DNA of 63,563 bases from an uncultured Clostridia bacterium (lineage in GTDB: Bacteria > Bacillota > Clostridia > TANB77 > CAG-508). The translations under genes and the position numbers were made by a program. The notes beneath the pieces are model-generated. The model was given only the letters and a program-made list of their open reading frames with translations. It made no database searches and was not told the origin of the DNA. The stretch covers positions 1-63,563 of the forward strand of contig CAKPAX010000006.1 in the NCBI GenBank assembly GCA_934133175.1, in the 5' to 3' direction. Shown here one piece after another: positions 32,483 to 32,611 of the stretch. Numbering within the stretch: the first letter of the stretch is position 1; the number at the start of each line of letters is the position of its first letter.

Positions 32483-32611
32483 ATTGTCATATTTTGTTTT
32501 GTAATACCGCGTAGCGAACAACCGGAGCGTAAGCGAAGGGCGAATGGAGCAGCCTTCCCGAAGGATTCCGAGGGCTGCGACAACAAGGTATAAAAAACAA
32601 CATATGACAAT
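32483..32611. repeat. G+C-rich 82-nt conserved core (32507..32588) at the apex of a 25-bp A+T hairpin, copy 1
   Basis: The core recurs at 38355..38436 with 2 substitutions. Arms 32483..32508 and 32587..32611 are complementary. Lies between convergent genes, with U-runs on both strands. Confidence 0.85.

Follow-up and report, generated by a model that had tools for sequence, protein, structure and literature searches.

A stretch of 63,563 nt from an uncultured Clostridia bacterium (assembly GCA_934133175.1, contig CAKPAX010000006.1; hereafter the window) holds two copies of a G+C-rich block of 82 nt, which is the core of small repeat elements that encode no protein and form a family, not described before, in several gut Clostridia of low G+C. 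The preliminary description of this DNA had left two readings of the block, a small structured RNA displayed on a variable stem or a miniature selfish element inserted in palindromic terminators. The second is now better supported by dispersal, polymorphism, decay, inversions and a plain terminator at the corresponding site of a sister species, although strict homing to hairpin loops is unproven. In its behaviour the element is closer to selfish DNA, unstable and mobile and with a conserved core that folds, than to a functioning RNA gene, and we consider it on balance probable that it is a non-autonomous palindromic element, similar to miniature inverted-repeat transposable elements (MITEs), located at the apex of terminator-type hairpins and mobilised in trans.

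The core lies at positions 32507-32588 and recurs on the same strand at 38355-38436 with exactly two mismatches, as first described, where shuffled sequences gave an expectation of 0 matches. The window has 25.2% G+C, and the two cores are the top two of all its 60-nt segments (65% vs a mean of 25%, standard deviation 7%). Each core caps a hairpin of 131-138 nt, and the placement at the tip of a long A+T hairpin holds for both copies, with folding z-scores of the element hairpins ranging from -4.0 to -4.7. The parts of the two hairpins, where P1 is the helix that closes the core, are as follows.

32482-32612, + strand: whole hairpin of copy 1 (RNAfold minimum free energy -48.7 kcal/mol, z = -4.74; also called as an inverted repeat)
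32482-32492 with 32602-32612, + strand: outer stem of copy 1, 11 bp, followed by a T.C mismatch (32493/32601)
32494-32500 with 32594-32600, + strand: inner stem of copy 1, 7 bp
32501-32503 (GTA) opposite 32592-32593 (AA), + strand: bulges of copy 1, inside which lie P1 and then the core
about 38326-38463, + strand: whole hairpin of copy 2, architecture as in copy 1, core at 38355-38436
38352-38356 (ATGCC) with 38435-38439 (GGCAT), + strand: P1 of copy 2, read from the sequence
32489-32605, + strand: repeat unit common to copies 1 and 2, about 117 nt, made of the core and about 18 nt per arm including the T-run/A-run

Two points of the preliminary description of arms and termini had to be revised. 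First, it does not hold that the arms differ largely between copies 1 and 2: BLAST of the copy-2 orthologue in L001 (collected loci are designated by L numbers) aligned 117 nt to 32489-32605 with 90.6% identity, and only the outer arms are locus-specific, the flanks of the two copies being unrelated outside this unit. Second, the element does own terminal inverted repeats, namely a T-run and an A-run (TTRTTTT...AAAAYAA) together with P1. When the shared unit is taken out of either window copy, a perfect palindrome remains.

The search for further copies and empty hairpins that had been proposed at the outset yielded further copies and, in L046, L016 and L051, core-less alleles. A scan of the GTDB genomes gave two exact 24-mer matches, at the same two loci of a single genome, a 98%-identical metagenome-assembled genome (MAG) of a human-gut uncultured Clostridia bacterium. 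Near-identical copies are found at both window loci in about 30 strain assemblies, and a metagenome scan added a third locus (L003), where a near-identical core is carried on different arms, and diverged homologues in other low-G+C hosts (L005, L008 and L009), which have 26-30% G+C and no other DNA similarity to the window. A profile search with nhmmer --max over the 550 kb of collected loci recovered every visible copy and added L008b, L048a, L048b and L051, all without the search key. Diverged copies are carried by at least three other low-G+C lineages; there are two loci in the window plus L003, L008 has two copies, and L048 two copies and a remnant. The unit measures about 117 nt in the window species and 165-200 nt in the other lineages. 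As in dispersed stem-loop repeats in the sense of PMC2267715, the copies are intergenic, occupy at least two loci in the window, L008 and L048, and form a stable stem-loop. Plasmid, phage and viral collections gave no real matches by blastn and four pattern scans, whose sensitivity is limited to exact patterns, and no occurrence of the core sequence was found in a literature search. Matches in L011 and L054 were rejected as chance matches in G+C-rich coding DNA.

Alignment of the family members divides the core into a closing helix, two hairpins and three conserved junction strands.

32504-32508 (ATACC), + strand: 5' strand of P1, pairing with GGTAT at 32587-32591
32509-32521, + strand: 5' junction GCGUAGCGAACAA, from alignments; CAA invariant, 32517-32518 freely variable
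32522-32539, + strand: P3, CC-GGA-GC-GUAA-GC-GAA-GG, a small hairpin with a 3x3 G/A internal loop
32540-32548, + strand: middle junction GCGAAUGGA, from alignments; fifth base variable
32549-32578, + strand: P4, a variable hairpin with basal stem GCAGCC/GGCUGC, 9 bp including one U.G pair
32560-32564 (copy 2: 38408-38412), + strand: P4 apex, the exact palindrome centre, hypervariable among strains
32579-32586, + strand: 3' junction GACAACAA, from alignments; GACACCAA in other lineages

The compensatory change in P1 between copies 1 and 2 (ATACC/GGTAT vs ATGCC/GGCAT), already recognised in the preliminary description, is continued in other lineages (AAGGC/GCCTT, ATCAC/GTGAT, ATCCC/GGGAT, GTGC/GCAC), so that all five P1 pairs are changed on both sides among nine sequences. 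The GCAGCC...GGCUGC helix proposed earlier is the base of P4, where five of the six basal pairs are changed on both sides (GCAGCC/GGCUGC, GCAAUC/GAUUGC, GAAAUC/GAUUUC, GAUUAU/AUAAUC). For P1 and P4 together, computed on an abridged alignment, 94.9% of cells are paired vs 66% in shuffles and 18-39% in slid controls, and 10 of 11 pairs are changed on both sides. P1 and the base of P4 have turned over fully across lineages with their complementarity kept, and the purine-rich linkers GCGUAGCGA-NN-CAA (GCGUA(AG)GCGA-NN-CAA), GCGA-N-UGGA and GACAMCAA are conserved. P4 as a whole is 30 nt long and G+C-rich in the window, and 58-80 nt long with an A+T-rich perfect inner hairpin in other lineages. The 5' junction (32509-32521) may form a mini-hairpin of 2-3 bp (P2), for which no covariation was seen and pairing is unproven; the family alignment has no compensatory changes in P2 or P3.

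The P3 hairpin was retained from the earlier description, and its GUAA loop proved not to be invariant: variation in P3 is confined to the loop (GUAA, GUA, GAA, AAA) and to the middle of the 3' strand of the internal loop (GAA, GCA, GGA), apart from L005, where CC is replaced by UU opposite GG, and the variants GUA, GAA and AAA come from copies recovered without that loop as search key. The 20-mer GGAGCGTAAGCGAAGGGCGA is invariant among L003-L009 because it was the search pattern itself, and an "invariant" GNRA hairpin was dropped as a partly circular finding, the collection scans being keyed on this 20-mer. For the same exact P3 20-mer, the match in L006, a G+C-rich contig, was set aside as due to chance; there (4987-5296) it lies in a non-coding-looking, GCGAA-rich stretch with an intact P3-like hairpin, GCCC-GGA-GC-GUAA-GC-GAA-GGGC, and with a hairpin that matches part of the model of the Brucella small RNA CI153, a repeat palindrome. 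Likenesses to the kink-turn, sarcin-ricin loop, 11-nt receptor, hammerhead and attC were considered by eye and none fits.

In each of the eight copies compared, the fold of the written strand is better than that of its complement by 3-9 kcal/mol, and the G.U and G.A pairs, like the purine-rich linkers, lie on this strand. The C(UUCG)G loop that had been pointed out on the opposite strand lies on the 4-5 nt where the element varies most and is not kept from strain to strain. The conserved structure anticipated by the structured-RNA reading is present, with covarying P1 and P4 and a strand bias in 8/8 copies. It raises the possibility of a structured RNA useful to the host, either a small RNA or a domain embedded in a 3' untranslated region or terminator and serving protein binding, stability or processing, whose long duplex would be a processing stalk (e.g. 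for RNase III) or a terminator stem and whose paralogues would arise by duplication. Besides the fold, several features agree with such an RNA: the junctions are conserved across lineages whose P1 and P4 turned over completely, the CC to UU change of L005 and the U.G pair of P4 are acceptable on the written strand only, the loop is of GNRA type and the internal loops G.A-rich, the copy number is low (2-3 per genome), and structured RNAs in A+T-rich genomes classically stand out as G+C-rich islands.

No known RNA family accounts for the element, as the preliminary description had supposed. Rfam 15 at the gathering threshold gave 0 matches in the whole 63.5-kb window, permissive searches gave chance-level matches only around copy 1 (E 0.5-6, 10-21 bits vs cut-offs of 45-65) and no credible family for the L008a and L005 versions, and ARAGORN found no tRNA or tmRNA gene anywhere in the 63.5 kb. 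The genes next to the window copies are listed below.

31884-32429, + strand: left neighbour of copy 1, DUF1980_C protein (Pfam 2.4e-31), converging on the element
32620-33717, - strand: right neighbour of copy 1, AI-2E transporter/YtvI-like protein (Pfam 5.5e-50)
37549-38220, - strand: neighbour of copy 2, small RelA/SpoT-domain alarmone synthetase (SAS; Pfam 6.3e-31)
38530-41367, - strand: neighbour of copy 2, UvrA (Pfam)

Across the family, copies adjoin unrelated housekeeping genes (DUF1980/YtvI, SAS/UvrA, MreC, BacA/UDG, gltX/methyltransferase, miaA and an O-antigen-ligase-like gene). Relative to flanking transcription, five copies are sense, three antisense and two undefined. The five sense copies, among eight informative ones, would be transcribed as the terminator tip of the upstream gene, which suits a host RNA; against it, the window copy 2, which is antisense to both uvrA and the SAS gene, and the copies of L051 and L005 are antisense to all flanking transcription, promoter-like matches occur at chance level only, and perfect stems of 20-30 bp that lack G.U pairs fit DNA palindromes better than RNA helices under selection.

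The behaviour of individual copies, which arise, disappear, flip, lose internal parts and decay over short evolutionary times, also argues against a host RNA gene. At the copy-2 site of L016 the core and one arm are deleted, the deletion being bounded by a TATATA direct repeat, and copy 2 is present in nine of ten strain contigs. In L051, a solo hairpin is what is left of the gltX copy of L048, after a deletion between TTGAAA repeats present at both ends, and L008b and L048b are decayed copies. No copy was seen in about 130 kb of loci taken from relatives with an AI-2E protein 69-82% identical. At two orthologous sites, that of copy 1 and that between bacA and UDG, the whole hairpin is inverted between lineages. 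For copy 1 the segment concerned is the following.

32445-32612, no strand assigned: 168-nt segment, comprising a small AT palindrome, a linker and the whole hairpin, inverted in the L002/L010 lineage

By BLAST, positions 5815-5983 of L002 align in reverse to window 32612-32445 with the flanks forward, and L010 has the orientation of L002. In L008 the copy between bacA and UDG is sense; L051 has it antisense and at full length, with the asymmetric loops of the outer stem flipped as well; in L048 it is an internally deleted antisense remnant, and in L046 an unrelated hairpin element is found instead. The adjoining bacA gene (undecaprenyl-diphosphatase) reads as two adjacent open reading frames (ORFs) of 114-117 and 150 amino acids in L046 (8184-8994), L048 (8406-9216) and L008 (3258-4077), and as a single ORF of 201 amino acids in L051; the split gene is possibly a frameshift or a pseudogene beside the insertion site.

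Polymorphism among strains points the same way. In copy 2, 12 of 82 core columns vary vs 22 of 408 outside the element (p = 0.007), with the arms nearly invariant (1 of 55 columns), and positions that are invariant in the family are also mutated in strains (GGGCGA to GGGCAA or GGACGA). Variation is strongest at the P4 apex of copy 2, where all five columns vary among 14 strain sequences vs 22/408 outside (Fisher p = 8e-7) and at least eight alleles (GAAG, GAGG, GGAG, GATG, GATA, GTAG and others) occur among strains that differ by at most 2% elsewhere; in strain L032 the apex is changed identically in copies 1 and 2. As the tip of an extruded hairpin, the P4 apex may be especially prone to mutation. 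In L004 the 5' strand of P4 carries 1 inserted nt (GCAGCCC; 3893-3960, orthologous to 32549-32555), and L022-type strains have C changed to T in the P4 stem (CCTTTCC), which we take as a sign that individual copies are free to decay. A core more polymorphic than its flanks, together with decay and deletions, fits selection on propagation of the family and not on each copy, unlike what is expected of an essential RNA gene. Since copies are in addition lost, inverted and decayed between close relatives and strains and wanting in a sister species, and since neither Rfam, orientation nor promoter signals support it, we regard a host-useful structured RNA as possible but on the whole unlikely.

The relation of the element to terminators is seen at copy 1. 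In the sister species (L039 and L040; AI-2E protein 81% identical), the corresponding site is 69 nt long and holds a plain bidirectional terminator, AAAACTCTAATTGA-loop-TCAATTAGAGTTTTTTT, the stem of which resembles the outer stem of the window, AAAAACACAATTG... The outer stem of copy 1 is probably host terminator sequence, and the element is best seen as sitting in or on a terminator rather than being one. The preliminary description had correctly placed copy 1 between convergent genes with T-runs beyond the hairpin on both strands, and these features, like the terminator of the sister species, could also be those of an ordinary bidirectional intrinsic terminator that evolved locally, an assembly or duplication artefact being a further option. 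However, a consensus terminator scan called no terminator at copy 1 or copy 2, the similarity of the flanks ends beyond the approximately 117-nt unit, this core is shared by other loci and other genera, and dozens of independent assemblies (ENA, Logan, JGI, NCBI) carry the element, which excludes an assembly artefact; this explanation is effectively refuted. At copy 2, the uvrA terminator hairpin (about 38474-38515) is separate from the element. One arm of that terminator (38462-38486) is 80% complementary to 38241-38265, just upstream of the ribosome-binding site of the SAS gene and about 200 nt away across copy 2, with an 11-nt perfect match (ATTATGTGCTT/AAGCACATAAT); this is possibly a long-range pairing or a coincidence.

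In L046, the outer arms are those of L048a and the core is missing, which at first was taken as an empty hairpin proving loop insertion; this claim was downgraded, because L046 keeps TTA...AAAATAA (3-7 nt) of the element termini and so may be an excision or deletion product, and L016 and L051 are deletions. In L008, by comparison, the repeated unit is the whole 200-nt hairpin, including its GCCC/GGGC clamp and A/T-runs, and L008a and L008b share full 33-nt arms at two loci; the L008b site has no hairpin in L051 (12170-12256, an empty site), and the right junction of L008b is lost at the contig end. Inner arms of independent copies have a common (TA)n-rich motif, e.g. TAAATATATTATTTT in L009 and L048a, which could be a terminal repeat or a target preference. 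The data fit an element at the exact centre of pre-existing A+T-rich palindromic terminators, with strict loop-homing not proven on account of the terminus remnants of L046, the plain deletions of L016 and L051, the whole-hairpin repeat of L008 and the shared inner arms. The dinucleotide TA stands on both sides of TTRTTTT...AAAAYAA in seven of eight copies, a pattern noticed post hoc in A+T-rich DNA and hence weak evidence; such flanks would fit a TA-duplicating enzyme of IS630/Tc1 type preferring ATATAT palindromes.

In relatives of the L008 lineage, long hairpin elements whose arms are likewise (TA)n-rich and whose cargo is unrelated were noticed at L046 8994-9324, L046 12170-12418 and L052 12123-12434, among them a nested inverted repeat of GGGGCGATTTTAATCGCCC and an element with core CCTCTTTCACTCAGACCCTCTGCGCTAATGCTTGAGTACCGTGAACATCC. 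As the same intergenic hot spots hold these other hairpin cargoes, the phenomenon is broader than the 82-nt core, and several palindromic element families seem to share one kind of site.

The graded similarity of the copies, with near-identical cores, similar inner arms and unrelated outer arms without a sharp boundary, may also be explained by an immobile DNA-level feature, whereby long A+T palindromes (terminators or cruciforms) would attract recombination and repair and the core would be spread between similar hairpins by break-induced gene conversion (e.g. after tip cleavage by SbcCD) with no dedicated transposase, or whereby the core would bind a protein when in cruciform DNA. A mutational hot spot at the palindrome apex agrees with this, as do inversions that take in the asymmetries of the outer arms, which is expected for inverted-repeat recombination, the shared apex change of L032, which hints at exchange between its copies, and the fact that neither a transposase nor a clear target-site duplication was found. 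On the other hand, copies exist in unrelated hosts and at loci with unrelated outer arms, for which some transfer mechanism is still needed; L008b occupies a new locus where relatives have no hairpin (L051 is empty there), which conversion between pre-existing hairpins cannot explain; and a strand-asymmetric fold is unexpected for a duplex or cruciform binding site. We consider an immobile feature of this kind quite unlikely.

We return to a MITE-like element mobilised in trans, for which we propose an anatomy that would run, from the outside inwards, through a locus-specific outer stem, the element's own inverted termini (with a bulge or a tandem G.A loop), P1, the G+C-rich multi-helix junction and P4. 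The core may be retained by selection on the element's own propagation, and would probably act as a strand-specific folded single strand, either single-stranded DNA or RNA, recognised by an enzyme supplied in trans. Candidate mobilisers include a DDE transposase of IS630/Tc1 type that targets TA, and a single-strand transposase that recognises hairpins. The terminator apex would be a safe site, since an insertion at the tip leaves the stem and T-runs intact and can be tolerated. Long palindromes are unstable, which could account for the inversions and deletions by way of recombination or template switching from arm to arm and of slippage at short direct repeats, and the hypervariable apex may reflect exposure or cleavage of the hairpin tip.

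Several observations weigh against this proposal. No transposase, reverse transcriptase or recombinase is found near any copy, in the window or in the collected loci, which extends what had been noted for the neighbourhood of the window copies; no autonomous parent element was found in genome, metagenome, plasmid, phage and viral scans, which covered exact patterns only; and none of the copies yielded a clear-cut target-site duplication or virgin empty site. The copy number is low, unlike a typical MITE burst, and the boundaries of the copies conflict, with a short unit ending at the T/A-runs in the window species and L048 vs a whole 200-nt hairpin in L008. Moreover, conservation of the junction across genera exceeds what a DDE transposase acting on termini would need, the purine-rich linkers, GNRA loop, tandem G.A and G.U pairs look RNA-like, and the covariation is to be read with the caveat that arm-to-arm correction in DNA palindromes can yield it without selection on structure. 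A nearby mobilising gene was considered and rejected, the only integrase of the window belonging to a separate island. This island is a block of about 7.5 kb downstream of secA (21417-28992), missing from the 98%-identical MAG contig L002, and contains a tyrosine integrase (27454-28830), a split DUF1016/YhcG PDDEXK nuclease, a histidine phosphatase and two ORFs without a Pfam match; L042 and L043 have a different integrase island at the equivalent site, which looks like an integration hot spot.

There is a bolder reading, in which the G+C-rich junction would be an active module, a ribozyme-like RNA or a folded single-strand recognition structure, that lets a protein-less element of about 110 nt copy into terminator tips via host enzymes alone, or in which the family would be a domesticated class of terminator-embedded structured RNA. 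We hold this to be improbable and speculative; if the active module were real, the element would be to bacteria what GC clusters are to mitochondria, and its catalytic or recognition core would be a defined one. If instead the MITE-like reading is right, uncultured low-G+C gut Clostridia hold protein-less palindromic elements that differ from classical MITEs, their conserved part being the folded G+C-rich centre and not the ends, and their habitat the apex of terminator hairpins. The family offers a compact, sequence-defined system of about 110 nt, of which public metagenomes contain natural alleles that are empty, inverted or deleted, and it bears on how small hairpin elements encoding nothing move, on how long palindromes are tolerated and rearranged, and on RNA cargo in terminator hairpins. 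Being G+C islands that mimic structured-RNA genes in A+T-rich genomes, these elements should also be recognised in screens for noncoding RNAs.

Among known systems, the 6S RNA, Y RNA and RNAs similar to that of the signal recognition particle share with the element a long closing stem, an asymmetric conserved centre and a variable terminal stem; unlike them, the element has no Rfam match even at E <= 10, exists as multiple decaying copies of variable orientation and is absent from close relatives. A canonical intrinsic terminator, in which a T-run comes directly after a G+C-rich stem of 5-20 bp with a loop of 3-8 nt, is resembled by the outer stem with its A/T-runs; the consensus scan was negative at both copies. 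Compared with REP sequences (repetitive extragenic palindromes of 20-40 nt, often in inverted pairs) and REPINs, the unit is much longer than a REP, and no RAYT (IS200-like) transposase was found in the 63-kb window or the collected loci.

Integron attC sites have R''/R' boxes at the base of the stem and are arranged in cassette arrays beside an intI gene. The palindrome-associated transposable elements (PATEs) of the IS200/IS605 group carry a pair of similar hairpins near their ends, lack global inverted termini and insert 3' of a fixed tetra- or pentanucleotide. The element is like both systems in its strand-specific fold with bulges, in a structure better conserved than the stem sequence, in that no target-site duplication is expected and in having no internal protein. 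Its arms are without R''/R' boxes (RYYYAAC/GTTRRRY) and its neighbours are housekeeping genes in conserved synteny, unlike attC; and unlike in a PATE, P3 is unrelated in sequence to P4, whose stem varies freely, and the element has global inverted termini and no fixed left-flank motif. Hairpins are targeted by IS1397 and ISKpn1, which insert in the loops of REP or palindromic-unit (PU) sequences, by IS1111/IS110 members, which insert in REP or attC, and by class C group II introns, which insert beside terminators. As in these, the position of the element is tied to a palindrome or terminator, with the tip or foot preferred and host genes spared; but they are autonomous, 1-2 kb long and equipped with their own enzyme, whereas the element is ORF-less and its targeting of a pre-existing loop is putative.

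G+C-rich hairpin elements are also known from the A+T-rich mitochondrial spacers of fungi and sponges, including the GC clusters of yeast (PMC2800124 and references therein), and stem-loop repeat families are a general class in bacteria (PMC2267715). Like the mitochondrial GC clusters and double-hairpin elements, our element is G+C-rich, hairpin-forming, protein-less, patchy in distribution and apparently mobile in A+T-rich spacers, and for them, as here, both a DNA-level and an RNA-mediated mechanism are conceivable; unlike it, they are organellar, without sequence relationship to it, and are simple GC hairpins without a junction on an A+T stem of 25-30 bp.

The element works most like the bacterial MITE-type and stem-loop repeats, such as the Correia repeats of Neisseria, RUP of Streptococcus pneumoniae, ERIC/IRU of enterobacteria and bcr1 of Bacillus cereus. 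With these it shares a length of 100-200 nt, an ORF-less, intergenic and dispersed distribution, a whole unit that forms a long hairpin through its inverted termini, occurrence in both orientations, strain polymorphism and decayed copies, and such repeats are often co-transcribed and located at terminators. As regards terminal repeats, inverted termini and about 18 nt per arm are common to the window copies, and the outer arms differ, yet are identical in L008a and L008b. As regards an autonomous insertion sequence and many copies, exact-pattern scans and inspection of the neighbouring genes gave neither. Unlike MITE-type repeats, the element has a very low copy number, no demonstrable target-site duplication, no related autonomous insertion sequence and differing outer arms, and it is the centre of the element, a G+C-rich covarying multi-helix junction, and not its termini, that is most conserved across genera.

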